Of a stretch of 64,000 bases of DNA, positions 13,091 through 60,843 are shown one piece after another (positions within the stretch are counted from its first letter, which is position 1; each line of letters begins with the position of its first letter). The stretch spans positions 128,001 through 192,000 of the forward strand of contig CAWCYI010000004.1 in the NCBI GenBank assembly GCA_963799845.1, written 5' to 3'. This DNA comes from an uncultured Nitrososphaerota archaeon. GTDB lineage: Archaea; Thermoproteota; Nitrososphaeria; Nitrososphaerales; CADDZS01. The position numbers and the translations under genes are program-made. The notes under the pieces are model-generated. The model did not search any database and was not told where the DNA came from. It saw only the letters and a program-made list of their open reading frames with translations.

Positions 13091-13231
13091 GGAGGGGTGG
13101 CGGAGAGGTCACGCGTCCGCCTGCAGTTCAAGGCAAGCTATCTTTGAGCTCTCGAAGCAAAGATTAGTAGTAAGCGGATTCTCGCCAATCAGCTAGACGC
13201 AAATATGTGGGTTCGAATCCCACCCCCTCCT
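13091..13231 (+). tRNA. tRNA-Cys(GCA) with two introns (about 13127-13172 at 37/38; about 13180-13202 at 44/45)
   Basis: Acceptor GGAGGGG/CCCCTCC, anticodon stem TCCGC/GCGGA, T-arm GTGGG-TTCGAAT-CCCAC; BHB-like motifs at both inserts. Confidence 0.9.
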
Positions 13232-39567: not shown

Positions 39568-39920
39568 TTTTTACGCTGCATACATAGACCCCCTTTTTTT
39601 CGCCAAAAGTAATAGCAGGAATGGGTGGTTGTGGAAGTTTGTGCCAACGCCCTAAATCGGGCTAAATTAGTGCTAAAGAGGCGCAGGCGAGCTTTTTTCC
39701 TTTTTGTGAAAAGAAGCGAAATCGACCTTTCGGGGGTGATGGAGGGAGGGTTGAGACTTTTTCCTTTTTGAGAATCAATAGAAATTGCATCTGGTGTCGA
39801 AAATTGGTCCTGATTGATGTTGGCGCCGGCCGTTTCTCCATTTGATGTCGTTCAGCTTTTGCATGAAACAAACATGTTTATTGCTAATTGCAAGGATTGG
39901 GGAAACAATCTGGATTGAAG

Positions 39921-41358
39921 ATGGCTCTAAGCAAACAGCTGACGGAATATCTGCCACTTTGGTCCGAAAGCCCTGGCCGCGGTGGGGAGTCAGAGGATCC
40001 ACTCGGTTTTCAGCGGCAATCCGAATATTGGGCGAACAAGTTCCTCCCAGGATTGACCGTGCTCACGATTACTCCTCGTTACTACTCTTTCATTTGTTGG
40101 TGCACTGATATAATTACCAGGGAATTTGCGGATTCCAATCAATATCGAGGAGAGATAACATGGCAGGAGTTTCAAGAATCCTTTAATCGATTTGAGCGAC
40201 TGCTAGCTGATATCCGAAGCGGCGTTTCACTCGGATGAAAAACCGATAAAATGCGGCTTCATAGGGAAACGCAGGGCCCCAAGAATTTACAAAAAGATGC
40301 GAGGGTACGGAACTCTAGATTTTTCGATTTTAGATCAGCAAGACAATACCGGCTCTCTCGCCAGATACAAGACCTCGCTGATTGATTTGAACCTATTTCG
40401 GCCCGATCAAATTGGTCTTACCGATAAGGGGGCGGAACTCGCTAAGGCATTTGAAGCCCAAATCGGTCAAGCCAAAACTCGATCTATTCATTATTGCATA
40501 GAGAAAAGAAATGTGAAAAAAACTCAGTTGTGGCATATTGGTTCGAAGTTTTGCTTGTCTCAGATCTCTAATGCAGAATGTAGAGAGATCGCAAACGCAT
40601 TATTTGGAAGAAGATACGACCGCGAGGAGGCGAGGGCCAGGAGATCGACTCTTCTCGCTTTAGACAAAGACGAAGATAGCGAATACAGTTTGTTATCTCA
40701 CTGCTATTCGCGACCTCGCAAAAGTGACATTGGAAACGATCTCGGGAACGTTCAGTTTATGCAGTTCTTCTTCATCGCTTCACTTACGATTTTTAACTGC
40801 CTATTGTTGTATAAAGAGCCTAACAGTACTTTCAAGATTTCCGGCTTCGTACAAGATTTTCTCGCGCATTCTTCATTTCCTGTCGAAGAAAATCTGAAAG
40901 ATCTCATCCCGACAATCAAAGGTAAAGAAATTAGGATTTCAGGGAAGATAGCAAAATGTAATGGAAAAAAGTACCCTGAATTGTATCAAGGACTAGATCT
41001 TGCAACTAACTTAGCTCTCTTAATTGCAGGGAGGAAAAGGGAAGGCCTTTCGAAACTTGAAAATAAAAATCTAATCTGCTATAGTTTTGTAAAATTCTCG
41101 TATTTGGTATCCAGCAACCTGAGTAACGGTCTGAGAGAATTCATGCAAGCGCTAATAATAGATCTCGTCAATTGGCACATTCTTGTGTTTGACTCTAAAC
41201 AGACTCAACCGTGGATAGAGTTTGGCGATCCCGATAGATCTATTCTCGTAACTAGGTTCCAAAAAGATGAGACCTTTTTTCTTAATCTAAATCCATACAG
41301 TGTAAGAATTAATGCGGCTTTGAGCCTACTTGGAGGGTTGGGTAGGTATGCAAAGTAG
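39921..41358 (+). CDS. DUF6361-like protein of PLD/helicase defence operons (frameshift near 40210)
   Basis: DPLGF..NKFLPGLTVLTITPRYYSFICW motif; ORFs 39921 and 40297 join. Confidence 0.6.
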
Positions 41359-43276
41359 TAGAATTATTCTCGACTCTTTGTTTGATTTTGAAGATAATCT
41401 CCAAAACGTATTGTTTCTAACTTTTACATTTGATATTCCCTTTTTCGAAACAAAAGTGCTTCCAAAGCTCGTTGAACGAGGGAAACCGAAGATCTCGGTA
41501 ATTATGGACTATGTTCAGCACACCAAATTGATTCAACAGTCGGTCCGAACGACTCCCATCTACAATATTGACCGGTGCGCAGGTCCTAATATTCTCCACG
41601 CGAAGATATTCATTCTAGGTGGAGCGGAAAAGCTTCGCGTAGTGGTCGGATCTTGCAATCTCACAAAGAATGGATTTGAGAGAAATGCCGAACTTTTCAA
41701 AACCATTGATATAGACAAGGATTCATCCGATTCTAGCTTTGCTGACTCTGTCTCGCAATTTTTGTTTGAAGTGGTGCGAAATAGAATCGGACGGATATCC
41801 AAGAGGAATATTGACGAAATCTTGATGAAACTTTCTTCGCAAAAGACCCAAGAGAATACCTCTCCAATTTTCATTATGAATTCCTATCATACGTCAGTCA
41901 TGGATCAGATTATCAAGAGAGTGGAAAAAAAGGATGTCCGATATATTCAGGTTCTGAGTCCATTCTTTGAATCAGAGGAATATGATGAAGGAATTTTCTC
42001 TTATTTCCTATCTCCAGTTTCTGTTTTCCCGAATCTGAAGTTTTTGGATGTCTTCTTTCAGAATAAGGAGCTCCAGCATAATCTTCCGGTCAAGAAGTTA
42101 GAGTCATTTCGCAGCAAAATTAGATTGTTTGATTTAGATTTTGATCGACCATTGCACGGTAAGGCTTTTGCCATATACACGTCTAGTCACGCTTTCATTT
42201 CCTACGGATCTGCAAATTTCACTACAGCGGCGTTGTATAGAAACTTGAAGGAGATGGGTAACATCGAGACAGTGATAACGTTGAAGTTACCCCTAATTAG
42301 AGGTAGAAATACCTTCGAAAAATCCATTCTCATGCTGAAGGAGAGAGTACAAATATCTCTCGAAGATGTCGAGCAACCCTTCGAATCCCAGCCCTTATCA
42401 TCCCTCGATGGAGGACAACTGATCAATGAAGCAGTATTGAGCACAGAGACGCAAAAATTAGAAATCTACATGAGTGACTTTTTCTATAATCTACCTGAAC
42501 CTTTACTAACTATTCGAATAGGTTCACAGATCATCCAGGAATTTCAATCATTAGGCAATATGGTAGTCGTAAATGATGCAGGCAGATACTTGAAGGACGT
42601 TGATGAGAAATACCATTGCGCTACGGTTGAGGTTCAGGTTGTGAGCCAAAAGGGCACTTTCCGTGATGTAGTGATGATCCAATTCTTGAATCCAGAGGAA
42701 TTTGAGTCAGATGGAACAAAGGTGACCAATGAATTTGTAACATTTCAGGAATATCTGCGCTCTCTAGACAGCATGATTCTCGGAAAACATTCAGGAAAAA
42801 TACGAGAAAAAAGCAATGATTCAAGCTCTTCATTAACGGAGAATGAAGGCTATGAGTCGGAGCTAGACGGATTCTTCAGAGATTTCTACACAGGCTACAA
42901 ATCTCTCAACTCCATTTTTGAAACATCTTACTATTCTGTTGATTGGGCGACACGAATAATGGAAATCTTCAATCTGATGAATGAGGATCTCAATCTTACG
43001 TTCCCTAAGAAATACTACTGCACCACTCAGTTATTGTCCCTTTTGATCAAGCATCTCAATGAAGAATTATCAGAGGGTTCGAAGTTGGCTAGCATCTTGG
43101 GACAGCGTTTGAGCGAACTTGATTTTTGGAATCCAATAATGATAGCGATTCAAGCTCTGAAACAATCCACTGAAACTGCTCCCGATAAAACTACAACTAA
43201 TATTTTGTCAGATCTCGAACGTAAAATCTCTGATTTGCATAGAAAATTTGATGGAGAGGCCTCAATCCTTGACTAG
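41348..43276 (+). CDS. Phospholipase D-family nuclease with two HxK domains
   Basis: LTFTFD..FFE, LHAKIF..VGSCNLT..G, SPFF, LHGKAF..GSANFT.AAL..NIE. Confidence 0.85.
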   Translation: MQSSRIILDSLFDFEDNLQNVLFLTFTFDIPFFETKVLPKLVERGKPKISVIMDYVQHTKLIQQSVRTTPIYNIDRCAGPNILHAKIFILGGAEKLRVVVGSCNLTKNGFERNAELFKTIDIDKDSSDSSFADSVSQFLFEVVRNRIGRISKRNIDEILMKLSSQKTQENTSPIFIMNSYHTSVMDQIIKRVEKKDVRYIQVLSPFFESEEYDEGIFSYFLSPVSVFPNLKFLDVFFQNKELQHNLPVKKLESFRSKIRLFDLDFDRPLHGKAFAIYTSSHAFISYGSANFTTAALYRNLKEMGNIETVITLKLPLIRGRNTFEKSILMLKERVQISLEDVEQPFESQPLSSLDGGQLINEAVLSTETQKLEIYMSDFFYNLPEPLLTIRIGSQIIQEFQSLGNMVVVNDAGRYLKDVDEKYHCATVEVQVVSQKGTFRDVVMIQFLNPEEFESDGTKVTNEFVTFQEYLRSLDSMILGKHSGKIREKSNDSSSSLTENEGYESELDGFFRDFYTGYKSLNSIFETSYYSVDWATRIMEIFNLMNEDLNLTFPKKYYCTTQLLSLLIKHLNEELSEGSKLASILGQRLSELDFWNPIMIAIQALKQSTETAPDKTTTNILSDLERKISDLHRKFDGEASILD

Positions 43277-45506
43277 AGACGACAATCTTCTGTCTCTTCT
43301 GAAACTCAATAGAGAGTACAAATATCAAAGAGAAACTGTGCAGGTTGTCCTTCACCGCTTCCAGAACGGATCTAAAGGAATCATCCTAGGTGACGAAGTT
43401 GGGTTGGGCAAGACCTACGAAGCTCTCTTCATAGCCTTCTTACATTTACTTTATTCTAGAAAGACTCGCAGTCCGAAGATACTAATCATTGTCCCTCCGA
43501 ATTTGAGAACGGAAAAATGGGAGAAAGAATTGATCGGAACGGGATTTGCCCGATGTATAAAGAAAACAAATGATAAGGAGATTATCAAGTTAAGCAAGAG
43601 ATTTCGAGATTCCGTCTTCGTATTGAAAAATAAGTACGAACTTTACGATGATGGATTCTCTGAAGCCTTAGATTCAGGAATCATGATATTATCTCCTTCA
43701 TTATTTTCGCCCAGAGATGATTGGACCAATGAAGACAAGCGTTTGTATAATCGCAGGTTAAATCGAATAAAACAAAACGAATGGGACATTATCATTGTCG
43801 ACGAGGCTCATAGATACTGTCGAGGGGGTGTGCATAGTGATTATGTCCTTGATGTGCTGGACCGTAGATCAAGCAAATGCAAGACAATTCTTTGCACAGC
43901 GACACCCTTTCAGCTTGAGACAAAAGAACTGCTCGAGCTATTACGGTTTATTGAGTACGATGAGGAAAAAATCGAACAAATCGGGAATTACATTGAAAAG
44001 TACAATGAACGATTTGAGGACTTGCGAAAAAATGGATTCAATGAGAAAGAGTTTCTCCAAATGCTCAAGACGAAGCAAGTCCTAGAAAAGATTCTAAGGT
44101 CGTATATCTTGAGAAATGTGAAGGATAAGAGATTCCGAATTTCTAGAGTCGATAACATTTCGGATCATTCTTCTCAATTTGACATATTCTATCTACAATT
44201 TAGAAATTTAATAGCGGATTACATGAGGAAAGGTGGAAGAACTTTTATCCCAACAATGCTACAGCTTGCGACATCCTCTTATGATGCTTTAAAGAACAGC
44301 GATAATTTCCATACAATGAAGGATTCTGTTCAGGAGGCTCTCTCTCTTGGTTACGTTGAACAAACACTTGAAACACACTCTAGTCATCCTAAGGAGAAGA
44401 GACTTTTCGAGATAATCGAGAACGAATTCAAGAGTGGGGATCCTCTTCAAAAATGGGTGATTTTTGTTAACCACCTTGATTCTGTGACGGAAATCCTCCG
44501 AAAGCTTGGAGAAGGAAGTGAAGATGAAAATCTGAACGCGATTCTTAAACTAAAGCTTGAGGAAAGGATTAACGGAATGTTAGCGAAATATGGAATCTCA
44601 CTAACTACATATCTGAGGGAATACTACTACAAAGTATTTGGCGAGAACAACGAATTCATTTACGAGAGACTGCGGCGAATATGTAGTGACGATGATATCT
44701 GGAAAGTGGAATTTCACCGATATTATGAGTCCGCGGAAGAAAAGAAAGCGCTTCCAAAGAAGCGAAAGCTAATCGATGCTTTCGTGGATGCTGCTAGAAT
44801 GAAGTTTGAAGAATCGACACTGAAGTTTGACATAATTGACCAGGTCACCAAGCAGTGTGGTACGCGTGATCAGTTGCAAGAGATCAGTAGCCGCATCGTG
44901 CAGAAGATGCTTGAATCCATCGTGCTTTCTAAAGTTCAAGAGACACTAAGCACAGTAGAAGAAGCTGATGGGTACACAAAGAGAAGAATGCGTAGGAACC
45001 TGGAAATCATGATTAGTGCCTTATATCGCAAGAACATAGTGGCGAAGCTCACCGGGGAAACTAGCAACAAAGGAGGAATAAAAGATAGCTTCAACGAACC
45101 GTACAACCCAATAATCTTACTTGTTTCGAGGGTCGGGGAAGAGGGTATTGACCTCCAAAGATACTGCAACAATGTTATCCATTACGACTTGGAGTGGAAT
45201 CCCGCTCGTATCGAACAGAGAGAAGGCCGTGTGGATCGTAAAGGTCGAATCGATCCTAATCACAAGATTGACATTCACACTTTGGTTCTTTCCGGGACAT
45301 ATGATGAAAGGATTTACCGTAAGTTCTTAGAGCGTAGGGAGATCTTTGAATTATATCTTTGCTCGGAATTCACTTCGGCGTTCGGCTTACTTGACAGCAC
45401 GGTGCCGGAAATCGATGCTGACGATAAACGCGTCATAGATCCTATTCCGGTGATTCCTATTCACAAGGCGAATATGTTGCATTTGAACTTGCGTCCACAA
45501 AACTGA
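43251..45506 (+). CDS. SNF2-like SF2 helicase
   Basis: GDEVGLGKT, DEAH, TATP, GEEGIDLQ, HYDLEWNPARIEQREGRVDR. Confidence 0.92.
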   Translation: MERPQSLTRDDNLLSLLKLNREYKYQRETVQVVLHRFQNGSKGIILGDEVGLGKTYEALFIAFLHLLYSRKTRSPKILIIVPPNLRTEKWEKELIGTGFARCIKKTNDKEIIKLSKRFRDSVFVLKNKYELYDDGFSEALDSGIMILSPSLFSPRDDWTNEDKRLYNRRLNRIKQNEWDIIIVDEAHRYCRGGVHSDYVLDVLDRRSSKCKTILCTATPFQLETKELLELLRFIEYDEEKIEQIGNYIEKYNERFEDLRKNGFNEKEFLQMLKTKQVLEKILRSYILRNVKDKRFRISRVDNISDHSSQFDIFYLQFRNLIADYMRKGGRTFIPTMLQLATSSYDALKNSDNFHTMKDSVQEALSLGYVEQTLETHSSHPKEKRLFEIIENEFKSGDPLQKWVIFVNHLDSVTEILRKLGEGSEDENLNAILKLKLEERINGMLAKYGISLTTYLREYYYKVFGENNEFIYERLRRICSDDDIWKVEFHRYYESAEEKKALPKKRKLIDAFVDAARMKFEESTLKFDIIDQVTKQCGTRDQLQEISSRIVQKMLESIVLSKVQETLSTVEEADGYTKRRMRRNLEIMISALYRKNIVAKLTGETSNKGGIKDSFNEPYNPIILLVSRVGEEGIDLQRYCNNVIHYDLEWNPARIEQREGRVDRKGRIDPNHKIDIHTLVLSGTYDERIYRKFLERREIFELYLCSEFTSAFGLLDSTVPEIDADDKRVIDPIPVIPIHKANMLHLNLRPQN

Positions 45507-45575: not shown

Positions 45576-46943
45576 CTAGTAAAAGCTCTGCCCTAAGTTC
45601 ATACCCTTTTCGGGCAAAAGTATACTAGGCGCAAAATCCTTGAACATTTGAGGATTTTCTGTATGAATTGGGATTGTTCGCTTTGCTAGTACTTTTTGAA
45701 CGAGAGACCTAATTTCTTCCCCCTTTGCATGTCCTGATGCGTGAATCTGATTGTAGCTAAATCCAAAATGTTCAACCCAATTCCTGATTATCCCTTCTTC
45801 TTCCTCTCCTTCTTCGTTGAACGCTTCTGAGGAGGAATGGATGTAAGCTCCGCCGATTTCGGGCTTGATATCAATCATTTCTGGAAGATGCCAAACATCG
45901 AGATGAAGGAAAATGTTTCTTTGATCCTTAGTTATTTCTTCACAAGTGAAACCATGATCCATTAGTTCTCGTTCCCAAACGAAATAGTCCTTGTCATCAT
46001 AGGTTCCAGTCTTCTTTCTCCGCAAGTATACGAAAACGTCTTTGCCCAGTTTTGGAACGATGAGATTCTTGTCCTTTTCAAGTGATTTCAGTAAAACGGC
46101 AGACTTCATTGATACGACCAATGTTCGGCCTGCCTTCTTGCACGCGGCGTGGAAGGTATTGATTCGATCAATATCGTTTCCCCTGAACGTTGAAAATACA
46201 AGTTTCTTCTTGTTTGCTTCCAAGAGATTCGTTGTCTTTTGAAATACCTGTTTCTCAGTTAGTTGCTCTTTACTATCATCTTTAGGTGAGACCCTTGTTC
46301 CTTCAGTGATCAAGCACATCGGTTTGGATTTCGTAGCCTCTTCCACAAACTCATGAGTCATGCTTCCTTTTTGTCCGTGAAACCTCAAGTCGCCTGTATA
46401 AACAATCGGTCCAGCTGAAGTGTAAATTAAGAATCCATAAGCTCCTGGAATGGAGTGGTCCACATGGATTGGAATGATTTCAACGCCGTGGATCTTTTTC
46501 TTGTCGCCAGTCCTAAATGTAATCAGTTTGTGGTCATCGAGGGGAGAGCCTCCGGATGAGCTGTACGCTTCTTGAAAGAGCGCTGTAGTTTCGCCGCAAT
46601 AAACCGGAATCTCTGGATCGACGAAACTAATTCTTCCCATGTGATCCCAGTGATAGTGGCTAAGGACTATTGCATCAATCTCCGGTTTGGAATACTTGAG
46701 ATTAGTAGTCTCCAGTTCATCTTCAGAATATAGTCCTTTGATTTTTGGCATCAAGTCAAATTCAAAATAGTCCCCGAGACCGTTGACTCCTCTCGGATCA
46801 ATTCCTGCTGAAAAGTAGCTCGCGCCATCAGAAAATCCGGTCCCGAAATCAAACAATATCTTTGCGTCTTTATCTTCTAAGAGAATCTTGTTTCCTCCGA
46901 TCTCATTTACTCCGCCAAAGAACGTTAGTCGTGGACCCAGCAA
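45576..46943 (-). CDS. MBL/beta-CASP nuclease, RNase J-like
   Basis: GGVNEIGGN, SHYHWDH, VDHSIPGA, YTGDLRFHG, HASGHA, PIHTE. Confidence 0.88.
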   Translation of the reverse strand: MLGPRLTFFGGVNEIGGNKILLEDKDAKILFDFGTGFSDGASYFSAGIDPRGVNGLGDYFEFDLMPKIKGLYSEDELETTNLKYSKPEIDAIVLSHYHWDHMGRISFVDPEIPVYCGETTALFQEAYSSSGGSPLDDHKLITFRTGDKKKIHGVEIIPIHVDHSIPGAYGFLIYTSAGPIVYTGDLRFHGQKGSMTHEFVEEATKSKPMCLITEGTRVSPKDDSKEQLTEKQVFQKTTNLLEANKKKLVFSTFRGNDIDRINTFHAACKKAGRTLVVSMKSAVLLKSLEKDKNLIVPKLGKDVFVYLRRKKTGTYDDKDYFVWERELMDHGFTCEEITKDQRNIFLHLDVWHLPEMIDIKPEIGGAYIHSSSEAFNEEGEEEEGIIRNWVEHFGFSYNQIHASGHAKGEEIRSLVQKVLAKRTIPIHTENPQMFKDFAPSILLPEKGMNLGQSFY

Positions 46944-47493
46944 ACCTTGTCGGAGGAAGGCCAGAAGTTAGCGTATTAAAACGCGTGAACCCCGAATTCA
47001 TATGTCGACCATCAACACTTGCTTACTTTCTCATGATTTATCGCTTCAAACATCAGTTAGTCGCTTCCGCGATTTTCACTTTATTTTTCTTCAGTAGACT
47101 CGCCATCTTTCGCAGAAGGGGGCAACCAAATAGCCATCTATTAATCCTATGGACAGTACGTCCTCTCTCTACGATTGGTCTCTTTTCCTAGAATAATTCG
47201 TAGATCGCATCCAGACTGCATTCCATCCTTTTATGCAAGAACCATGCAACCCCGAGCGGGGACCATTCAATTCCCGTGATGCAGTGTCATGGTTGTTTGC
47301 CTAACTGTAAGTTCTCTTGACATTTTGGCCGCAGATCTTTATCATGCTTAGTACCCATCCCGCAATGTCTTTATCGATCACGACCGACCAGTCATATTCG
47401 TTCGCCGTATCAGAAACCATTGTGAATAATAAAGTGAATCCTAGGCTTCAATTGTTTTGAGGCTTATACGCAAAATTAGAAAGTTCGAATAAG

Positions 47494-48387
47494 ATGACAG
47501 AACTGGAACGTGATCATTTGTCAGTTGCTTCCTTGTTTGACAAGATGGCGGATGAATACGACACGATTGTCGACCCCTGGTTCGATCATTTGTATGACAG
47601 ATTGAACGAGATTATTGACAAGGTTTTGGACAAACACTCTAAAAGAGATAATATGATTGCACTGGATGTCGGGAGCGGAACGGGATTCCAGTCCTTTATG
47701 TTTGCAAAGCGAGGTTATGAGACTATAGGTTTCGACATATCAAAGGGCTTGACAACTGTTGCAATTTCAAAGTCAGAAGATAATGTGGTATTGAGAAATA
47801 AATTGTCATTCTGTTTGGCTTCTGCTACTCAGATTCCCTTCAAATCCCAAAAATTCGATCTCGTCAATTGTTGTGGAAGCGTTCTAAGTTTAATCACAAA
47901 CTACGAAGTGGCACTAAGGGAAATGTGCCGAGTCCTCAAACCTGGAGGAATCATTATCCTTGAAGTTGAGCAAAAGTGGAACTTTGATGCTTTCTGGATG
48001 CTGTTAAGCAGTGTTTCTGGCGATCTTCTCGGATACGAAGGTTCATCAAGTGAATCTTTAGAGATTTTCAGAAATCCCAGGAATCAGGGCCTGGTTATCA
48101 AATGGCCCTTCACATTTCTTGATGGCTCAAAGGAAGAAATGCGACTCAGATTATTCACATACGAAGAGATTGCCGCTTCACTTTCGAATCTTGGTATTAG
48201 GGTCTGTCAGGTATTCGGCGTCCACATCTTCACTAATCTGGTTCCTTCGACAATACTTTCCGATCCAGGATCTCAAAAATGGATCAAAGTAATGAAGGGT
48301 TTAGCAAGAATAGATAGAGTGGTAGAGGGTTCAGTTCCATTTAATCACTTCGGAGCCAGTCTTGTGATTATTGGTACGAAAACATAG
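47494..48387 (+). CDS. Class I SAM-dependent methyltransferase (Methyltransf_11-like)
   Basis: FDKMADEYD, LDVGSGTG, GFDIS, IPF..FD, RVLKPGG. Confidence 0.88.
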   Translation: MTELERDHLSVASLFDKMADEYDTIVDPWFDHLYDRLNEIIDKVLDKHSKRDNMIALDVGSGTGFQSFMFAKRGYETIGFDISKGLTTVAISKSEDNVVLRNKLSFCLASATQIPFKSQKFDLVNCCGSVLSLITNYEVALREMCRVLKPGGIIILEVEQKWNFDAFWMLLSSVSGDLLGYEGSSSESLEIFRNPRNQGLVIKWPFTFLDGSKEEMRLRLFTYEEIAASLSNLGIRVCQVFGVHIFTNLVPSTILSDPGSQKWIKVMKGLARIDRVVEGSVPFNHFGASLVIIGTKT

Positions 48388-48449
48388 TAAAATAGGATTA
48401 TTGGAGCGAAAGCGAAATAAGTTTTCGATTTGTGAGATTAGATTGAGCT

Positions 48450-50376
48450 TTGTCGATAGTCGATTCTCCTGATGAAAGCGAGTCTTCAGTCGAGAAGGCT
48501 CTAGGCTGGGTCAAATCTCAACACAAACCTGGCCAATGGTTTGATACTAGAGCTGATCCTCTGGCAATATTAGCACTCCTAACTTGTAGAGAACATCCCG
48601 AATCCCCTATCATCAGAGAAGGAAAAGACAGACTTGATTGCACGTCAGGAGGATGATGGGAGTTGGTCCGAAGAAGCTTGGGACACAACATATGCCATGC
48701 GGGCTCTTGTATCTTGGGGGGTAGAAACATCATCGACTTGCCTCAAGAAGGCGACAGAATGGCTACTAAATCTCCAGGACAGACGTACAGGTAGCTGGCA
48801 CGGTGAAGTGTGGGAAACAAGACTTTGCGCTTCTCTCATTGAAAGAGATGGGTTACCCCGATGACTTTCCTCCTGTTTCTAAGGCGATAGATTGGTTAGA
48901 GGCTGCGCAATTTGATGATGGATCCTGGTTGCATGCCCCTCACACCACTTCTGTCGCTTTGTTAGCTCTTTCAAACCTAGCGAGCCAAACTAGAGAGTCA
49001 GTCGAAAAAGCTGCTAGCTGGCTCACATTTTATGGAAAAGAAGAGATATGGTCACAGGAATGTTATGCAAATGCATATGCTCCGCTCGCGCTAAACAGTG
49101 TAGGGATATCATCGGACTCGCAAGCAATCAAAAATGGGATATCATGGCTCCTTGCCAACCAGCAAGACTGTGGAAACGGTATGGGATTTTGGGCTGATGA
49201 GGAAGACACGTGCCTTGCCATCATGGCACTAGTCTCTACTTTGCAACTTAGATTCAAGGAAAAAAAAGTCATAATTCAACCAGTCACAAGCAAGTGCTCG
49301 ATCTCGATCGCCCCGAACCTTTTGGATTGGCAGGTATCTACTCCATCCCAGAGTAGACTTGAGGCAAAACAACGAGTAGATGAGGTATATTTTGGAAGAG
49401 TAACAGAAGCAATTGACAAACTTGGAGGTCTTGCAAGTCGGTCACTATCGAAATCAGATCCAAATCAGCTCACAAATCATTCAAGGAGAGCTATCGGAAT
49501 TGGTAAAAATTGGTCGATTAATTTGGAATCTTTTCATTCCAAAAGAGTTCAAAATTGCATTGCAGAGTGAGAGAACAGATCATCTTCTTCTAGAGCTGAG
49601 TGAGAATTCGATTCTTCCATCGATTCCTTGGGAAATAGCTTACGATGACAAAACACAGAGTTTCCTCTCGCTAAAGTATGCAATAGGAAGAGCGATTCTA
49701 AGGCACACACTTGGACCTCCAAGGTCAAGTCTCAAAATCAGATCTAGGCCGAGGATCCTTTTCTTATCCAATCCCACAAACGATTTGCCTGGAACAGATA
49801 TTGAAGTTCGGCAAATAATGTCGACATTACGAAATCGAGATGTTGCAGATTGTGTATTGCTCAAGAACACAGAATCAGGTTTAACTAAAGAAAGCTTCAT
49901 CCATGAGCTGGTTCATGGTGATTACGACATCGTGCATTATGCAGGGCATGCGGTTGTAGACCAAGCTGATCCATCATCTCACTACCTTCCATTTGTGGAA
50001 CGAGGAGGACAAATGACAAAACTTTATGCATTCGAAATATCGAATTTCTCAAGCTCTAAAGTACCAAGCGTAGTCTTTCTCAACGCATGTTCTTCAGCTA
50101 GACAAGACGACGTTGGATTGTCCGAAGATGCTAACAATCTGGCCTCGGCTTTCATCTCAGCTGGAATCCCATTGTTTATCGGACCTTTGTGGAGGGTTAA
50201 TGATGATGATGCCGCGTTTCTCGCAAGCAATTTTTACTTGAACGCGATTCTGGGCTTTACAATAGGAGAATCACTGAGAATTGCTCGTGATGAAGTAAAA
50301 AGAAGATACTTCAGGTGATTCTGTTTCATGGGCTTCTTTTGTCTTGTATGGGGACCCATCAACTAAACTATTTTGA
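48450..50376 (+). CDS. Prenyltransferase/squalene-cyclase-like alpha-alpha barrel fused to a CHAT (caspase-like) protease; four frameshifts
   Basis: QW repeats (RQEDDGSW, LQDRRTGSW, AQFDDGSW, NQQDCGNGMGFW); CHAT motifs IPWE, NPTNDLP, HYAGH, LNACSS, LW.V.D, WASFVLYGDP (last in shifted frame to TGA 50376). Confidence 0.8.
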
Positions 50377-50444
50377 TTAAAGAGCCTGAACCTGATCGCT
50401 CCTTGAAATGGGATTATGATCTGAGAGCGCCCTAGGACTCCAAC

Positions 50445-52766
50445 CTAATCAAGTTCTTGAAAAAACGTGAGATATTGGGAAGGTACATAGTACTTACGCA
50501 TGTCATCTAACCTATGTAATCGCTCCTTTTTCTCAAGCTGGTACATAGATGAAAGCTCGCCAAGCTCTATTCTAATTTCTTTCTCCGTATAATTTAGCTT
50601 CTCTGCCAGTTGCTTCGGGGAAAGCGGTCCACTTCTTGCAAGGGCTTCTAAGATCGATTTCTGGCGAGAAGGGATTTCCAAAAACTCTGCTTTCGTCCAT
50701 ACTGAAGGGATTGTCTCTGATTTTTGCGGTAACGTGAGCGAATCCGGGACAGAATTGTCTTTCTTCAACTCATCTTCCTGTTGACGCAGGCTTGCCTTTT
50801 CGAATAATAGTTGCTTTACCAAATTAGGAGTAACTTCAAAAGTTTTAGATCTTCCCATTTGTAGAGCAATTCCTTCTAATATTCTGACAATGGATCTGAC
50901 GTTCCCCTGCGAAGCGAGAGCGATTGTTGATATGACTTCAGAGGACAATTTCAGAGTGGGAAGGAGTGATGCGGCAAGTTTCTCGACGTCTTCTGGCTTG
51001 AAGGGATCGAGTCTGAAAATGTAGGGTACTCTTTCAATGAAAGCTGGATATTGGTCGCGTATTCTTTCCACTAATGCAGGCGTCAGTAACAATATAATAG
51101 TGATTGGAGATTCAGAGATATAATTGAAGAAATAGGAAAACGTGGCTAGGGATCGGTTTGAACCCGCAGATGGCGCTATTTGCTCGAATTCATCAATGAA
51201 CAACACAATTCGTCTTACCTTGGCATCACCGAATTTCTCGACCAATCGAACTATCGTACTATAAGTGACGAAAGAACCAGGTTCATCCGAGCCAGGGTAC
51301 CTAGATCTAGTGGCGGCAGAAAGAAGCCCGGGTGACAGAGTTATACCTCTTCTCAACAGCTCGCTCACTAGTTCTGAAGCCAGCTTCGCAATGGTTTTGG
51401 TTGGTGACTTTTGAGATTCGACAAATATTGAAAAACAATCCCCAAAAGCCCCTTCATTTATCTTGGATTGGAAGAAACGTGCCATACTAGTCTTGCCTGA
51501 ACCATAGTCACCTTCAATAATGGCGATTTTGGCCCCTTCACGGAAAAAGGAAAGGAATGATCCGAAAGATCGCTTGAATTCTTCTTCGTTAACCAGCATA
51601 CTCTCACGAATCTTGGCAGCCGTGAAAGGATGGGCAGCTGCAGTAGGATTCGGAAGAATCACCTGATCCCGATATCGTTCACGGTTGGCTTTCATTATGT
51701 TGAATCGGGATTCCAAAAATTCTCTTCTTTCTTCGAGCTTTTCAATAAGATGCTGTGCTTCCTTAACCATGGAGTCTATCTCAATACTTTTTTCAGTGTT
51801 GAATCGAAGTTCCTGAAGCGACGATCTAATCTCTTCCTGCAACTTTGAAAGCGCTACACGGTTACGTCTTGTTTCCTCAGCGATCCCTTGGAGGTCTTCC
51901 ATTAGCATACTAGAATTTGTGGAGCCTTTGATTGAATTGAAGTCAAATTCGAAGGATCGTAACCAATTTTGGGATTCAGCCACTTTGTTCTCAAGGTAAT
52001 CAAGAAATCTTTGAATTTCGCGATTTTTCCGATGGGTTAGCTCTATACCTCTTTCCAATCGGTCAATGATGTCTCTCGCGTCTTCTTCAAGAAATGGCTT
52101 CGAAGAGTAGTTCACCAGCTCAGCACCAGCCTTTTCTCTTATCGCGTCGCGCAAATAATCCTCGAAATCAAATGTGCAAACAATCATTGCCATGTCGTAG
52201 TTTCTGTCTGCGAAGTTCTCACGGAACTTGTTCACGAAGTCCGAAGTTAGATTTCTCTTATCACTGATCACCTGGATTAGACATCGGAATCCTTTAGGAG
52301 TAACAACAACTAACTCTGAAACAGACCCCTCAAGGGTAACCTGACTTTCTATTTTGAGGCCAAGCTTCTCAAAGGACTGTTTGATTTCAAGAAGAATAGC
52401 TCTATCGTATCCGTAAGCTTGAGTATTTGCGAGTGTATTCATGTAGTATTCCGCTTCCTTCATACTCTCACGCGCACGTTGGGCCAATTTTGCATAGATA
52501 CCTGGGGAGGGACGGTAACGGACTGGATTATCTCCGGTCTTCTCGACGAATGCCTTGTTCTCTAGAACCGAAAGGATGTCATAGGTCTTGGCCCGAGGGA
52601 TCCCAGTTAAGTCGGCAATTTCAGGAGGACTTTTTGGTCCACCTGCAAGACCTGCTAAAGCTTTAAGCTCATATTCACTTATGTCCAAGACCCTACCTAA
52701 CATATGCAAAGTATTGGGGTCGAAAGGTGTGCGGAGTGACATGTCCTTTTGTCTCTTCAGGGGCAA
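50445..52766 (-). CDS. Multidomain protein: TrmB HTH, REase-like fold, coiled coil, AAA+ ATPase, winged helix
   Basis: ISEYE..A..L..GIPRAKTYDILSVLENKAFV (TrmB); GDYGSGKT; LFIDEFEQ; SQGNVR; C-terminal HTH (LSPKQLAEKL). Confidence 0.75.
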   Translation of the reverse strand: MPLKRQKDMSLRTPFDPNTLHMLGRVLDISEYELKALAGLAGGPKSPPEIADLTGIPRAKTYDILSVLENKAFVEKTGDNPVRYRPSPGIYAKLAQRARESMKEAEYYMNTLANTQAYGYDRAILLEIKQSFEKLGLKIESQVTLEGSVSELVVVTPKGFRCLIQVISDKRNLTSDFVNKFRENFADRNYDMAMIVCTFDFEDYLRDAIREKAGAELVNYSSKPFLEEDARDIIDRLERGIELTHRKNREIQRFLDYLENKVAESQNWLRSFEFDFNSIKGSTNSSMLMEDLQGIAEETRRNRVALSKLQEEIRSSLQELRFNTEKSIEIDSMVKEAQHLIEKLEERREFLESRFNIMKANRERYRDQVILPNPTAAAHPFTAAKIRESMLVNEEEFKRSFGSFLSFFREGAKIAIIEGDYGSGKTSMARFFQSKINEGAFGDCFSIFVESQKSPTKTIAKLASELVSELLRRGITLSPGLLSAATRSRYPGSDEPGSFVTYSTIVRLVEKFGDAKVRRIVLFIDEFEQIAPSAGSNRSLATFSYFFNYISESPITIILLLTPALVERIRDQYPAFIERVPYIFRLDPFKPEDVEKLAASLLPTLKLSSEVISTIALASQGNVRSIVRILEGIALQMGRSKTFEVTPNLVKQLLFEKASLRQQEDELKKDNSVPDSLTLPQKSETIPSVWTKAEFLEIPSRQKSILEALARSGPLSPKQLAEKLNYTEKEIRIELGELSSMYQLEKKERLHRLDDMRKYYVPSQYLTFFQELD

Positions 52767-53798: not shown

Positions 53799-55739
53799 AT
53801 GAAACGGGCAATAAGATATTCCCCCGAGCTTGCCAGGAAAATTGCGAAATCTGTAGTGAGGAATGATCCGATAAGATCTCTCGTTGAAATTTGTACTAAC
53901 AGCGATGATAGCTTCCACAGAATGAATAAGCCTGAATATTTGGGTCGGATCACGATTGGCATAAGTCGAGGAAGAGAGAATGCTACAATTTTGATTTATG
54001 ACAATGCTGAAGGGATGGATTCTGACACAATGGAGTACGCTGTTGGTGGATATGGATTCGAAACGAGCGGATTCAAAGAAGGAATGCGAGTTAGAGGACT
54101 TTTTGGAAGAGGCCTGAAGGAAGCAATACTAGGGTTAGGAGCAGGTCACGTGATTTCCATCAAAAACGGAATCTACTCCGAATGCCTGCTTGACGGCGAC
54201 GGTATTTTTGAGAACATGGAACCAAAAAAGGCAGCACCAAAAGACTTCAAGCAGCTCATGATATCTGAGAATGAAAATGGATATCTTGTACTAATAGAGA
54301 TGAAGGCTAGAGAGAACGATCTACACATCCCCCTTTTTGATACTTTGAGGGAAACTCTCCAAAAACATGTTAGCCTTCGTGATATCATGACCAGCCCGAG
54401 AAGGATTGTGAAACTTTGTGACATAAATTTGAATCGAGAAGAAATCTTGTCATATCGTTATCCGGTTGGTACATCGATTCACAAAGAGATGAACGTTGAA
54501 ATCCCAGGCTATCCTGACGGGAAGATTGATGTTGAGATTTTCAAGGCTGAGGAGGAACTATCTCAGGCTGAAGAAGGCTATACTCGTGACGGAGGATTAG
54601 TAATTCGTAGCGGCACGGCAATACATGATTCGACTTTGTTCCGCTATGATTCAGACAAGTACGCTCGCAAACTTTACGGCACGATTCGATGCGAATACAT
54701 TGACAAGCTCATTATTCAAGAAGAAGCTGTCATTTCTGATAAACGAGATGGTCTTGAGCTCAATCATCCGTTTGTGAAGGCGCTGAAGCTTCTCACCGAG
54801 GAGATTCTTGAACCCATTGTTGCAAAAGAGCGGCGTGAAGAAGAAGCAAACAAGAAACAGCTGGAAACAGCGAAAACTCAACAGAGATTTCAAAAAACCA
54901 TCGAAGAGCTGAACCGCATAGCAAATCAGGAATTGCGCACAGTTGAAGGACCCGTCGAGATTGCTGAGGGCAAGAAGCCTGATATTCCGTCCGCACCCCC
55001 ATCTATTACTTTCCAGTTTGGAATACCATTTGCGACTATAGTCACGGCGAAGAGAGAAACTCTTTACCTCAAAGCTTCAGTGCCCGTTGTCGTTGGAGAT
55101 GGTGTTCGGATTAATATCATGAGTGACAGTCCTGAAGTAATCGTTCTAGATCCGACTCAAACGGTCGAAGCAAACCAGTCTGTCAACGGCATCTGCACTT
55201 TCAAAATTCATGTAGAGGGTCGTCAAGTTGGCGCCACAGCTACAATAGCGGCTGATGCGTTGGCCTTGGGGCTAAGAGCAACCATGAAGGTCAAGGTAAT
55301 CTCTAAACGTATTACCCCGCCTCTTTCACCCTCGAAGCCGCCAAAGGCAGGTCTCTTCAAAGAAATAAGATTCAATGATGTTGATGGACCGACTCAGAGA
55401 GCATTCTATGATAGTAACACGGGAATAATAGAAATCTATACGAAGAGCGAGTCGGTTGGCATGTATTTGGGACCAAATGGAGAAAATCAGGAGAAACCTT
55501 ATGCTCAAGTTTTGGTCGCCGAGCTGATCGTAGATGTTTACTGTCGCTACCTTGCGAAACAAAAAGAAAAGAAAGGCATACTAGTCATTCTAAACGAAGC
55601 ATCAAAACTAGACCAAATAGATAGAGAGCATGAAAAACTCCGCTCTGAATACGCCACATTAATACACAAGTGCATAGTGGATTCTACGATACATCGAGAC
55701 AGTCTCGCAATTTCCAAGTTGGAGAGGATTTCCAAATGA
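53799..55739 (+). CDS. GHKL (MORC-like) ATPase
   Basis: Bergerat motifs EICTNSDD, DNAEGM, GLFGRGLK; S5-like region, coiled coil, beta-rich C-terminal domain. Confidence 0.85.
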   Translation: MKRAIRYSPELARKIAKSVVRNDPIRSLVEICTNSDDSFHRMNKPEYLGRITIGISRGRENATILIYDNAEGMDSDTMEYAVGGYGFETSGFKEGMRVRGLFGRGLKEAILGLGAGHVISIKNGIYSECLLDGDGIFENMEPKKAAPKDFKQLMISENENGYLVLIEMKARENDLHIPLFDTLRETLQKHVSLRDIMTSPRRIVKLCDINLNREEILSYRYPVGTSIHKEMNVEIPGYPDGKIDVEIFKAEEELSQAEEGYTRDGGLVIRSGTAIHDSTLFRYDSDKYARKLYGTIRCEYIDKLIIQEEAVISDKRDGLELNHPFVKALKLLTEEILEPIVAKERREEEANKKQLETAKTQQRFQKTIEELNRIANQELRTVEGPVEIAEGKKPDIPSAPPSITFQFGIPFATIVTAKRETLYLKASVPVVVGDGVRINIMSDSPEVIVLDPTQTVEANQSVNGICTFKIHVEGRQVGATATIAADALALGLRATMKVKVISKRITPPLSPSKPPKAGLFKEIRFNDVDGPTQRAFYDSNTGIIEIYTKSESVGMYLGPNGENQEKPYAQVLVAELIVDVYCRYLAKQKEKKGILVILNEASKLDQIDREHEKLRSEYATLIHKCIVDSTIHRDSLAISKLERISK

Positions 55740-56407
55740 AAAAAGAGAGTTTCGATGAAAACCAGTATGCATCGATAGGTTACGATGATCTTGTAACCTA
55801 TTCTGTATTTTCTCTTCAGAACAAAAAAGAGGAAGCAACTTTCGAAAATCTTGTGGTAGAATGTTACCATCTTTTTCCGAAGAGGTTTAGTTTAGTCGGG
55901 TATCCCCGATATCCAGACTCCGCTTTGGTAAACAAGAGCTGGTTGCGCTGTCGCACGGATAAGGGTTTGATTGAGGGAAACGTTGCCAACGGGTTCAAAC
56001 TAACAGCAGCAGGTCTCGCCATCGTAGAGAAGGTATCCCTTCTGTTGAAAGACAAAATGAGTAAGCCTTCTCTCGAAAAGAAGAAGGATGAAGAAAGGAG
56101 TCGAGCAAGCAAGTTCATCCAACATATCGATGCATCTGCAGCGTTTAGGAAATATGTTCAGAACAGCGAAAATCCTTCAATATCAGAATTTGAATTGAGG
56201 GACTTGTTACTCGGGACCATGCAAACTGAACCAGAACTGCTTCATGAAAATCTTGTAAAGCTTGCAGAGTACGCCAGAATAAAGGAGAGGGATGACATCT
56301 TATCTTTTCTTGGATATGTAGAGACTAGACTGAAGTCACAATTCAATCTCGAATCTCGTCCTCTTATGTATGAAGGCGGAATGAATAAGCGAAAAGTTCG
56401 ACGGTGA
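55736..56407 (+). CDS. Winged-helix protein coupled to the MORC ATPase
   Basis: ATGA overlap with upstream stop; FENLVVECYHLFP..FSL.GYP.YPD..GFKLTAAG. Confidence 0.65.
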   Translation: MKKESFDENQYASIGYDDLVTYSVFSLQNKKEEATFENLVVECYHLFPKRFSLVGYPRYPDSALVNKSWLRCRTDKGLIEGNVANGFKLTAAGLAIVEKVSLLLKDKMSKPSLEKKKDEERSRASKFIQHIDASAAFRKYVQNSENPSISEFELRDLLLGTMQTEPELLHENLVKLAEYARIKERDDILSFLGYVETRLKSQFNLESRPLMYEGGMNKRKVRR

Positions 56408-56414
56408 ATAACAA

Positions 56415-57392
56415 ATGTCTTCCCTAGATTCCCTATCTACCAAGGGTGTTACTCCAATACACATCCAATTGCTGAAGAAATTTCAAGTCCTCCAGGGTGA
56501 AACCATTACTAATAGTGAACAGATTAGAGGGCAAAAAGGTCGAGCACCTATACCCGCCGACTCACTTGTTTCAGTTCCTCACTATCTTCACAACCTAGTA
56601 AGAGGGGTCTACAAACCAAGAGGAGACAATTTCGCACTAGCGATTCAGCTCAATCCAAGCTCGTCATGGGGTACCGAAATCAACTTTTTTTCTAACAAAA
56701 AATGGTTGATTAGATATGACTTCCAGGATTCATCGAAATATGCTGGAGATATGCAATCTCTAAGAAACTGCCATGAACAGGATGTTCCAATTGGCGTAAT
56801 ATACAAAATGAAGAAGGCGACAAATCGCATACTCGGGCTGGGTCAAGTAGAGCAGATAATAGGTACTAAATTTACCATAGCCCCTTTTCAATTAGACAAG
56901 AAATCGACAATAGATATTGATGATCTCGCGCATTCCTTAGCTACTGAAGAGGTAGCCCAGGGAGACTTTTCTTCATCGGGAGGAAATAGATCGATTGTCG
57001 GCAGGCAGAAGATGCGATGGTTCCGCGAACAGTTAATGATCCAATACGAAAAGAAATGCGCATTTTGTAATTTATCATTTGAACCCTATCTAATAGGTTC
57101 GCACATAGTACCTTTTTCGTACATGCAGAAACATGACCCAAAAAACTCAATGAATCCTTCCGATGGAATACTTCTCTGCAGCTTGTGCGACAAAGCATTC
57201 GAGAGAGGAGACATTGTCATTCACCCTGATTACAAGATCGATACTTCAAAAGTTGGAAAACTTCTTCAGGAAGACAGAATTGCTGTTGCATGGCTTGGAA
57301 AAATAAAATCCACGTTGAATTTTTCAAGCATTGGAAAATTTCCAGCTAGCAAGAAGTATCTTAAAAAGAAGATCCTACTCAACTCTTCATAG
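56415..57392 (+). CDS. HNH endonuclease with putative SRA-like N-terminal domain (type IV restriction-like)
   Basis: CAFC..SHIVP..NPSDGILLCSLCDKAFE (HNH_2); N-terminal GVYKP..ALAI..Y..L..PIGV..ILGLG.V. Confidence 0.8.
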   Translation: MSSLDSLSTKGVTPIHIQLLKKFQVLQGETITNSEQIRGQKGRAPIPADSLVSVPHYLHNLVRGVYKPRGDNFALAIQLNPSSSWGTEINFFSNKKWLIRYDFQDSSKYAGDMQSLRNCHEQDVPIGVIYKMKKATNRILGLGQVEQIIGTKFTIAPFQLDKKSTIDIDDLAHSLATEEVAQGDFSSSGGNRSIVGRQKMRWFREQLMIQYEKKCAFCNLSFEPYLIGSHIVPFSYMQKHDPKNSMNPSDGILLCSLCDKAFERGDIVIHPDYKIDTSKVGKLLQEDRIAVAWLGKIKSTLNFSSIGKFPASKKYLKKKILLNSS

Positions 57393-60357: not shown

Positions 60358-60843
60358 CTAATCTTTGAGTGAGATTTTGCCAGTACCTCCACAAAACGAG
60401 CAAACCAGAGTTTCTTCTGCAACCTGTATGCCTGCTTCCTCTCCTCGTTGATATTTCCTCGTGACAGTAATCCCTTCTCCGTTGCATTTCTGGCATCGCT
60501 CGAGGAGTCTAAGAGATTCTTCAAGTGTTGCAAGCTCTTTCGTATTGTATTCTAAGTTGGCTTGCTTCTGCTTACCTAATCCATAAAGCCTATTTCTCAG
60601 AGCGGTCTGAGCGATTGCCGATGAGTATGCTTTTTCAGACACATTTGAGAACCCAGCTCGTTTGATCTCTTCCATAGGAACTATTTCGTCCTGTTCTAGT
60701 CGTTCCGCGATTTGACTAAGTGATTTTATCTGTTCTTTTAATGAATAATTTTCTTCTCTAAGGGAATTGATTTTTCTCTCCTTTAGACGAGCCTGGAGTT
60801 TTATCTGTCTGATCGAATTCTCGTCATTGGTCATCAGGATCAT
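60358..60843 (-). CDS. Coiled-coil protein with DnaJ-type zinc finger
   Basis: CQKCNGEG ... CSFCGGTG; overlaps the SMC stop codon. Confidence 0.7.
   Translation of the reverse strand: MILMTNDENSIRQIKLQARLKERKINSLREENYSLKEQIKSLSQIAERLEQDEIVPMEEIKRAGFSNVSEKAYSSAIAQTALRNRLYGLGKQKQANLEYNTKELATLEESLRLLERCQKCNGEGITVTRKYQRGEEAGIQVAEETLVCSFCGGTGKISLKD

Follow-up and report, generated by a model that had tools for sequence, protein, structure and literature searches.

In the type III-E CRISPR system known as Craspase, TPR-CHAT (Csx29) carries a helical-repeat N-terminus followed by a His-Cys CHAT protease, which stays inactive until a sensor event takes place. In CBASS and type III CRISPR systems one and the same sensor is mounted either on CHAT (SAVED-CHAT) or on TIR (TIR-SAVED), and Borvo, a single-gene system of defence islands, consists of a protein (BovA) with a C-terminal CHAT domain. 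The eukaryotic separase (Peptidase C50) bears very long helical arms and is regulated by securin. Here we describe a gene at positions 48450..50376 of a 64,000-nucleotide stretch of contig CAWCYI010000004.1 from an uncultured Nitrososphaerota archaeon (this whole stretch is referred to as the window, and all positions follow its numbering), in which an N-terminal barrel of the terpene-cyclase type is fused to a CHAT protease. We consider it probable that the product of this locus is a single intact, cytoplasmic protein some 640 residues long, formed by a barrel with a sensor or regulatory role and a CHAT protease, and that the breaks seen in the gene are errors of the assembly. Existing annotation names the fusion only as a 'CHAT domain-containing protein'. 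Neither a description of the barrel-CHAT fusion nor any paper combining 'CHAT domain' and 'squalene-hopene cyclase' was found in the searched literature; PMC11854122, which does combine 'CHAT domain' with 'prenyltransferase', is unrelated as far as its available part goes, and the accessible text of PMC8195603 contains nothing on this architecture.

The elements of the locus are the following:

47494..48387, + strand: methyltransferase gene, an intact open reading frame (ORF) of 297 residues, Pfam Methyltransf_11
48450..50376, + strand: barrel-CHAT gene, five pieces in the window and one ORF of 640 residues after five read-supported changes
48450..49260, + strand: N-terminal α/α toroid (the barrel), from Pfam, the model of the homologue P0001 and VIA-align
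48679-48690, + strand: WDTT, pocket residues conserved in the barrel
48802-48819, + strand: GEVWET, pocket residues conserved in the barrel
49196-49210, + strand: DEEDT, in the last (sixth) helical hairpin of the barrel
49261..49535, + strand: β-rich linker and helical region, approximately residues 275-370 of the P0001 model, aligning with the substrate-binding part of separase
49536..50376, + strand: CHAT (caspase-fold) protease domain, from Pfam CHAT and fold matches to TPR-CHAT/Csx29 and separase
49935-49949, + strand: HYAGH, with the catalytic His codon at 49947-49949
50082-50096, + strand: NACSS, with the catalytic Cys codon at 50088-50090

As assembled, the barrel-CHAT gene runs from a TTG at 48450 to a stop at 50376 in five open pieces, whose frames, given as start mod 3, are 0, 1, 2, 0 and 1; the pieces are separated by four +1 shifts and, apart from these, the gene is free of in-frame stops. 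The intact homologue P0001 (638 residues) matches all five pieces collinearly in a tblastn search. Piece 1 has no Pfam match and is 61% identical to residues 7-60 of P0001, pieces 2 and 3 match SQHop_cyclase_C (E 2.2e-6 with 27.4 bits and E 1.2e-7 with 31.5 bits, cut-off 26.1), and piece 4 (49413-50315) matches CHAT with E 5.2e-31 and 108.6 bits against a cut-off of 24. Once corrected with the read evidence presented below, the window protein is a single ORF of 640 residues with 52% identity to P0001 over 638 columns. The original prediction had joined five ORF fragments into one protein of roughly 640 residues, with a QW-repeat barrel followed by a full CHAT domain with its His and Cys and with an S-adenosylmethionine-dependent methyltransferase on the same strand. 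The frames, the tblastn matches and the single ORF obtained after correction bear out the first point, the Pfam matches and motif positions the second, and the third holds as well, since an intact class I methyltransferase ORF ends at 48387, 62 bp from the start of the barrel-CHAT gene.

The protease half belongs to the CHAT family by profile score, by its His-Cys dyad and, in the P0001 model only, by its caspase-like α/β fold. P0001 scores 129 bits against the CHAT domain of Pfam, and its H495 and C543 are retained by all 12 aligned members, with the HYAGH and NACSS of the window aligning at these positions. The structure considered here is an AlphaFold model of P0001, the homologue with 52% identity, obtained with a 12-row alignment and having a predicted local distance difference test score (pLDDT) of 75 and a predicted template-modelling score (pTM) of 0.61. 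It is composed of 12 helices (residues 2-263), a β-rich linker (278-308), two long helices and an α/β domain (375-629). Residues 275-638 superpose on the substrate-binding and catalytic domains of separase with Z 22-23 and a root-mean-square deviation (rmsd) of 3.8 Å over about 312 residues, and the protease half superposes on Csx29 with Z 20-21. The best Foldseek matches of the whole chain are TPR-CHAT/Csx29, followed by separase, the DdvA anti-sigma factor and SAVED-CHAT.

Each of these relatives shares some parts with the barrel-CHAT protein and differs in others. Csx29 (7zoq, E 7.6e-10, as well as 7y8t and 8eex in Foldseek) likewise places a helical-repeat N-terminus before a His-Cys CHAT domain; however, the N-terminus is here a closed α/α toroid instead of open TPR repeats, and the whole-chain superposition is poor (rmsd 22-25 Å), so that only parts match. 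Furthermore, PADLOC detected neither gRAMP/Cas7-11 nor any other CRISPR gene among 18 window proteins. With a toroid N-terminus and no gRAMP/Cas7-11 neighbour among the proteins scanned, the locus does not belong to the type III-E Craspase systems. The SAVED proteins resemble it in that the toroid is found with the same pair of effectors, CHAT and TIR, and the SAVED-CHAT filament 8tl0 is among the Foldseek matches of barrel-CHAT; in contrast, the sensor fold is unrelated, and neither a nucleotide cyclase nor another signal-making enzyme was identified beside the barrel-CHAT gene. Borvo has in common with it the single gene, the C-terminal CHAT domain and the location in defence islands. Scored with the BovA model of PADLOC, a piece of the window gene matches with E 1e-5 and P0001 with E 3.3e-13, in both cases only in the CHAT core (positions ~504-668 of 711), whereas the N-terminal two thirds remain without a match and a divergent metagenome form, L139, gives no match at all; the protein is thus no full-length Borvo homologue. 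Finally, the Pfam family Peptidase_C50 matches a piece of the window gene with E 2e-6, in agreement with the superposition of the substrate-binding and catalytic domains of separase, an enzyme which is otherwise eukaryotic and lacks a toroid domain.

The barrel itself (residues 5-263 of P0001) was compared with solved structures by means of VIA-align. The highest scores correspond to drimenyl diphosphate synthase (Z 24.8) and squalene-hopene cyclase (Z 23.8), followed by the monodomain cyclases 8paj, 8pak and MstE (Z 21-22), and slightly below the cyclases come thioester domains (CD109, Z 20.6; TEP1, Z 19.6) and sugar-binding toroids. An ESM Atlas model is consistent with this fold, and the family profile matches squalene-hopene cyclase 1gsz with E 7.5e-17. 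On the basis of these models the barrel is a predicted single α/α toroid of about 265 residues, nearest to class II terpene cyclases and in particular to their β domain. Both have the (α/α)6 toroid and QW-type repeats; the barrel differs in being a single domain, in the absence of the DxDD motif and in its fusion to a protease. The thioester domains (TED) of α2-macroglobulin, complement and CD109 share the same toroid fold, with weak matches to Pfam TED_complement, but the barrel lacks the conserved thioester Cys and the barrel-CHAT protein is cytoplasmic, with no signal peptide.

The canonical chemistry of the cyclases is not conserved with the fold. The motif DxDD (searched as D.DD) occurs in none of 22 barrel-CHAT proteins within the first 300 residues. 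The best collinear alignments place the cyclase DxDDT on a family motif E-x-W/F-E/D-T, although the hairpin repeats leave the register ambiguous. It had been suggested that DEEDT takes the place of DxDDT; this does not hold, given that DEEDT is located in the last hairpin and is not conserved, with only its D and T retained and VHDTA found in other members. Scores against the NCBIfam cyclase models fall far under the cut-offs (43.6 bits against 431 for hopene_cyclase, 49.1 against 322.7 for squalene_cyclas). Consequently, of the attributes of a class II cyclase the barrel shows the toroid with QW repeats, and neither DxDD, the β-γ didomain nor an equivalog score; the domain count alone is not decisive, since monodomain cyclases exist. 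In protein prenyltransferase β subunits the zinc site is formed by Asp, Cys and His within the toroid. No Cys or His is conserved in at least 10 of 12 rows over the first 270 residues, which makes both a thioester and a zinc site like that of prenyltransferases unlikely; no gene resembling an α subunit lies among the scanned neighbours. Judging from its sequence, the barrel is probably not a canonical cyclase or prenyltransferase. The conserved residues are instead polar and aromatic ones, located at the N-terminal ends of the inner helices (R32, E73, W75, D76, T77, W114, E117, E120, T121, N205, D251 and T252 in P0001 numbering), and the read-corrected window protein carries these pocket residues.

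A role for such a pocket is suggested by the domains to which the barrel is attached. A barrel-only profile (16 rows) was searched against 1.84 billion representative proteins and gave 5745 matches at E ≤1e-3, with 49 at E ≤1e-30; the partner domains were read from Pfam scans of 24, and then of 15, selected matches. The barrel is joined to CHAT in 8 of the 24 proteins checked (P0153, P0157, P0161, P0166, P0169, P0206, P0228 and P0266) and to TIR in four proteins, P0238 with TIR_2 and P0296, P0259 and P0291 with a TIR of the CAP12/Pycsar type. Many other barrel proteins are only about 370 residues long and have no further domain and no signal peptide, and 17 out of 18 of these end in a hydrophobic segment with the length of a membrane helix. 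This set comprises the metagenome proteins P0165, P0172-P0174, P0176, P0179, P0180, P0183-P0186, P0193, P0195-P0199 and P0202. A search of 351 genomes from the phylum to which genome G458 belongs returned no proteins of this barrel-plus-helix type. The pocket residues are common to the barrel-CHAT proteins, to three of the four TIR forms and to the forms of about 370 residues, and a profile of the latter matches the barrels of barrel-CHAT proteins with E 1e-42 to 1e-44. We propose to group as 'toroid-sensor effectors', which is not a curated family, those proteins in which a barrel with the pocket signature R32, E73-x-W-D-T, W114-x-x-E-x-W/F-E-T, N205 and D251-T is combined with CHAT, TIR or a membrane helix; the read-corrected window protein shows this signature. 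We read the barrel as a sensor because one domain with one pocket is joined to a protease, to TIR or to a membrane helix, and one barrel with exchangeable effectors would fit, by analogy, the pattern of ligand-gated immune effectors. The suggestion already made for this locus, that a sensing barrel gates a caspase-like effector, is thus the best reading, drawn from the attachment of the barrel also to TIR and to a membrane helix.

The integrity of the gene was evaluated with Logan contigs of public sequencing runs. Four runs, with depths of 2-7, were compared with the window over 47400-50500, and the differences are the following:

48632, + strand: extra base at the first +1 shift, left out by X1 (depth 5.4) and X3 (depth 2.3); CAG/CTTG without it
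48822, + strand: extra base at the second +1 shift, left out by X1; AAG/CTTT without it, giving WETSF as in P0001
49466, + strand: extra base at the third +1 shift, left out by X1; context AAT/AGCT
49980-49981, + strand: CA in the window and AG in the reads of X1 and X5 (two studies); His in the window against an invariant Ser
50308, + strand: extra base at the fourth +1 shift, left out by X1 and X3; context GAT/CTTC

The contigs of run X1, which contains 93% of the sampled words, are devoid of the extra base at all four shift sites (4/4), and those of X3 at both sites that they cover (48632 and 50308). The change of CA to AG restores the serine equivalent to S506 of P0001, which is invariant in the family. 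Apart from the five sites the window is identical to the read contigs across 3.1 kb, and its broken form appears in none of the four runs compared, which come from two studies. Every one of the five damages the gene, with no silent change among them over the 3.1 kb; moreover, four of them fall at AGCT, and three are the identical event, an A inserted before CTT. Such a pattern, disruptive throughout and falling mostly at one tetranucleotide, favours a systematic consensus error over drift. The tetranucleotide AGCT is not depleted in the window (293 observed against 250 expected). Elsewhere in the window the long genes are open, ORFs of 843, 831, 773 and 752 residues among them, which indicates that the assembly is not generally riddled with frameshifts; a scan of overlapping open frames for further frameshifted genes returned mostly overlaps that resemble ordinary operon junctions. 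The assembly's consensus is almost certainly wrong at the four shifts and the His-for-Ser replacement, which would at most represent a private variant and not the form of the gene in the population; the barrel-CHAT gene is very probably whole in the organism. The concern that four indels might reflect decay is largely removed in this way, the read contigs being without all four extra bases. As a cause of the errors, C5 methylation specific for AGCT was considered and rejected, there being no PF00145 match in the source genome (86.7% complete). This genome (G000) contains twelve matches to the N6/N4 DNA methylase family (contigs C4, C6, C7 and C8), of which about ten are strong, and lacks any match to the C5 family; it is a heavily methylating genome, which may bear on the consensus errors.

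The barrel-CHAT fusion is a real but rare family. Of 96 long matches to the CHAT piece, 14 carry both PF13243 and PF12770, with the barrel first in 12 (577-652 residues) and CHAT first in two, and scans of genomes and metagenome contigs yielded 21 further loci covering barrel and CHAT. The fusion is genuine, as had been anticipated, for it recurs as intact proteins of about 640 residues. Most loci are from Acidobacteriota (Pyrinomonadaceae, Thermoanaerobaculia and Chloracidobacterium), with one Verrucomicrobiae bin, a Thermoplasmata archaeon (L011) and three divergent forms from metagenomes, among them L090 and L139. The window protein pairs with P0001 (support 100) in a quick maximum-likelihood tree, where the bacterial proteins form one clade (97) and L139, L090 and L011 constitute long separate branches. 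The distribution is very patchy: barrel-CHAT is found in none of 60 genomes of the order of the window, in 400 genomes of its phylum there is a single weak match, to CHAT only, and nothing else, and just two of 351 Acidobacteriota genomes contain it. The source genome contains a single such barrel, and no relatives of barrel-CHAT or barrel-plus-helix proteins were found in viral contigs. Single frameshifts are seen in three homologous loci, one a long-read bin and two metagenome contigs (L055 near 9083-9085, L098 near 244 and L099 at 4300-4372).

With regard to the upstream gene, its product matches Methyltransf_11 with E 1.8e-20 (73.8 bits against a cut-off of 21.2) and is formed by a core of the UbiE/Methyltransf_11 type, at residues ~57-156, with a conserved C-terminal extension of about 140 residues. 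The NCBIfam matches remain far under their cut-offs (62-65 bits against 158-216 for the UbiE type, with cut-offs of up to 327 in the UbiE/MenG comparison), so that the protein is a generic class I methyltransferase and not a member of the UbiE/MenG-type quinone methyltransferases; its best solved relative is 2avn (E 1.2e-13). Of 160 fetched loci, only L139 has a true homologue, which is encoded on the same strand as the barrel-CHAT gene but on its downstream side; the two methyltransferases are 35% identical over 292 residues (E 3e-49) and 37% identical when aligned in full. Since the fusion proteins of the window and L139 are only 29% identical, the presence of this neighbour beside two divergent fusion genes is unlikely by chance, yet it represents a minority pattern. 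Three genomes with barrel-CHAT have no methyltransferase homologue, for five relatives of the methyltransferase in the phylum of the window neither a barrel nor a CHAT gene lies within some 8 kb, and no fusion of the methyltransferase to barrel or CHAT occurs among six long matches, which is weak evidence.

In the bacterial clade the partner is a different one. All 18 loci examined (18/18) contain a CxxCxxCC gene (PF03692) of about 150 residues, arranged tail-to-tail with the barrel-CHAT gene and overlapping its 3' end, whereas L011 and L090 have neither this partner nor the methyltransferase. The proposed linkage of methyltransferase and fusion therefore stands in so far as it recurs at L139, and fails in the bacterial loci, where CxxCxxCC replaces the methyltransferase, and in the three fusion-carrying genomes that lack it. 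Sequence comparison thus points to a weak link, in which the methyltransferase perhaps serves a minority lineage as an accessory. The CxxCxxCC pairing concerns the loci L006-L010, L015, L027, L055, L086-L089, L092, L094-L096, L098, L099 and L104. PMC8598068 describes for the FliB lysine methylase a comparable cysteine motif, to which a 4Fe-4S cluster is bound, an analogy that offers only a lead for the function of the CxxCxxCC partner. A SET-domain methyltransferase as a replacement of CxxCxxCC in L008 was discarded, as the CxxCxxCC gene is present there and SET adjoins only in L008 and L010. Genes for an XerC/D-like integrase, a deoxyhypusine-synthase-like protein and a 690-residue Peptidase_C14 protein are often near the bacterial-clade loci. 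The deoxyhypusine-synthase-like genes occur in seven Acidobacteria loci and an arginase-family gene in L139, a hint of polyamines that may be plain synteny. In L090 (115-5225, + strand) a 994-residue TPR-CHAT gene lies directly upstream of the 668-residue barrel-CHAT gene, with two CHAT proteases in tandem.

The convergent neighbour at 50445-52766 had been put forward as a substrate of the protease. According to Pfam it contains a TrmB-type helix-turn-helix, an AAA/STAND-like ATPase and a C-terminal winged helix, and it has no relative in the 160 fetched loci; nothing marks it as a substrate. At ~39.5 kb the guanine-plus-cytosine (GC) content of the window falls from 0.47-0.53 to 0.40-0.44 and stays there to the window end, and this step at ~39500 probably marks an acquired island, although neither a tRNA nor an integrase was seen at the boundary. 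The other genes of this part of the window are the following:

39888-40235, + strand: ZacA-like ORF (weak), PADLOC E 2e-4
41330-43276, + strand: ZacB-like PLD nuclease, PADLOC E 6e-15
43248-45506, + strand: ZacC-like SNF2 helicase, PADLOC E 6e-37
45576-46943, - strand: RNase J-like β-CASP metallo-β-lactamase, 455 residues, divergent from the methyltransferase with a 550-bp gap
within 53799-57392, + strand: MORC-like HATPase_c_3 protein of 646 residues and an overlapping ORF of 245 residues, Pfam
56415-57389, + strand: HNH endonuclease, 325 residues, library scans
60843-63335, - strand: LmuB-like SMC-type ATPase, 831 residues, PADLOC E 2.5e-50

The barrel-CHAT gene is located in a defence island together with Azaca-like and Lamassu-like genes, and this setting gives a higher prior for a role in conflict; caspase, SEFIR, TPR-CHAT and AbiEi genes are also near some of the acidobacterial loci. 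The Azaca-like set (39888-45506, + strand) includes an intervening, unassigned ORF of 353 residues. Just downstream of the LmuB-like gene there is a zinc-finger-like ORF of 161 residues (60358-63335, - strand, for both), and the two may form a Lamassu-type system. The 70-nt overlap at 55670-55739 could be either an operon junction or another consensus error, and the RNase J-like gene has no relative in the fetched loci. Outside the island, Rfam places a tRNA at 13091-13231 (+ strand) that spans 141 nt with 43.1 bits and probably has an intron; ARAGORN found no tRNA in the window.

Several observations weigh against an intact sensor-protease as proposed here. The structural evidence comes from the model of a homologue with 52% identity and is of moderate confidence (pTM 0.61). 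Run X1 may be the very sample from which the assembly was made, contigs lose rare variants, and with depths of 2-7 a minority or private broken allele may exist; besides, the errors would have to cluster at ~5 of ~21 AGCT-like sites of one gene. The alternative that follows from these points, a true pseudogene in the assembled strain, in which four single-base insertions and one substitution disabled a horizontally acquired, possibly toxic protease that related populations preserve intact, draws on the breaks in the window sequence itself, on the one frameshift present in each of 3 of 21 homologous loci (L055, L098 and L099), on the nature of the gene as a rare acquisition, and on the ease with which a rare or private allele escapes contigs. 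We regard it as distinctly unlikely, considering that the broken form is missing from all four runs compared, across two studies, that five disruptive and zero neutral differences, four at one tetranucleotide and three of them the same event, speak of systematic error and not of drift, and that every signature residue is retained in the pieces. Programmed +1 ribosomal frameshifting, or four-base decoding at a shared site, could be imagined in view of four shifts in the same direction, two of which have AGACTT in common with an in-frame CTT preceding the skipped base. Nevertheless, the CTT is out of frame at the fourth site, the homologues have no such sites, and the extra bases are missing from the read-derived contigs, for which reason this explanation was rejected as far as contigs can tell, its probability being negligible.

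Further objections concern the function. The monodomain class II cyclases (MstE, 8paj and 8pak, Z 21-22), along with the invariant acidic residues of the funnel, leave room for the barrel being an enzyme, either a monodomain class II cyclase or another toroid catalyst, which would act in a pathway with the methyltransferase and the protease, as in a CaaX-like sequence of prenylation, cleavage and methylation or in the maturation of a peptide natural product. The nearest folds (Z 21-25), the profile match to squalene-hopene cyclase (E 7.5e-17), the invariant acidic and aromatic residues at the funnel and the small-molecule-type methyltransferase adjoining the fusion in two divergent loci all agree with such a pathway; nonetheless we find it very unlikely, because DxDD is missing in 22 of 22 proteins and no Cys or His is conserved for zinc, TIR and a membrane helix are partners of effectors and not of pathways, the methyltransferase is absent from the 18 bacterial-clade loci and from three fusion-carrying genomes and is not fused to barrel or CHAT among six long matches, and no precursor-peptide or isoprenoid genes were seen nearby. 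In Acidobacteriota, on the other hand, synteny is conserved around the gene, with XerC/D-like, deoxyhypusine-synthase-like and caspase genes as neighbours, which is not necessarily a defence island, and the fusion might then be a housekeeping or regulatory protease, for instance one controlling the CxxCxxCC protein or a transcription factor, with no defence role and an incidental place in the island. The constant tail-to-tail pairing with CxxCxxCC, the XerC/D-like and deoxyhypusine-synthase-like neighbours and the existence of regulatory proteases among the solved CHAT/separase relatives (the DdvA anti-sigma factor, separase) would agree with that function. It is unlikely, however, in view of the very patchy distribution (0/60 relatives, one weak match in 400 genomes of the phylum, 2/351 Acidobacteriota), the Azaca-like and Lamassu-like genes flanking the window gene, the swapping of effectors with TIR, which is typical of conflict systems, and the SEFIR, TPR-CHAT, caspase or AbiEi genes near some loci.

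We therefore retain the reading of the locus as an intact barrel-CHAT protein with a sensing or regulatory barrel. The role of the barrel as a sensor, the kind of trigger, the function in defence and any part played by the methyltransferase all belong to a mechanism that we infer. In it the N-terminal toroid, derived from the fold of the terpene-cyclase β domain and missing the acid motif of the cyclases, would act as a ligand- or protein-binding sensor or as a regulatory domain for the CHAT protease. By analogy with TPR-CHAT, SAVED-CHAT and Borvo, a trigger would bind to the conserved acidic and aromatic funnel and release the protease, and the freed protease would then cut cellular targets, leading to the growth arrest or death of the infected cell. 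The bacterial lineage would pair the fusion with the CxxCxxCC protein, and the methyltransferase would be an accessory in a minority lineage; the idea of a methyltransferase module survives as a weak link limited to that lineage. A more far-reaching and distinctly unlikely possibility is that the toroid is an unrecognised small-molecule sensor of immune effectors (CHAT, TIR of the NADase type or a membrane helix), comparable to SAVED or CARF, whose ligand, either a methylated metabolite or a methylated protein group, would be produced or modified by the methyltransferase in the window and in L139, with the iron-sulfur-type CxxCxxCC protein having the equivalent role in bacteria. If true, it would constitute a new signal-and-sensor immune pathway using methylation chemistry.

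The locus also holds a caution for genome scans, in that a gene with the look of a decaying pseudogene, or of exotic recoding, proves to be whole in the reads, from which the assembly deviates at five motif-linked sites. The class of prokaryotic immune effectors that combine a sensor with a CHAT protease, kin of caspases and separase, is growing, and a closed barrel of the terpene-cyclase type as the sensor of such a protease is not described in the searched literature. The pocket conserved across CHAT, TIR and membrane-helix partners thus provides a handle on a possibly new family of ligand-gated effectors in archaea and bacteria.

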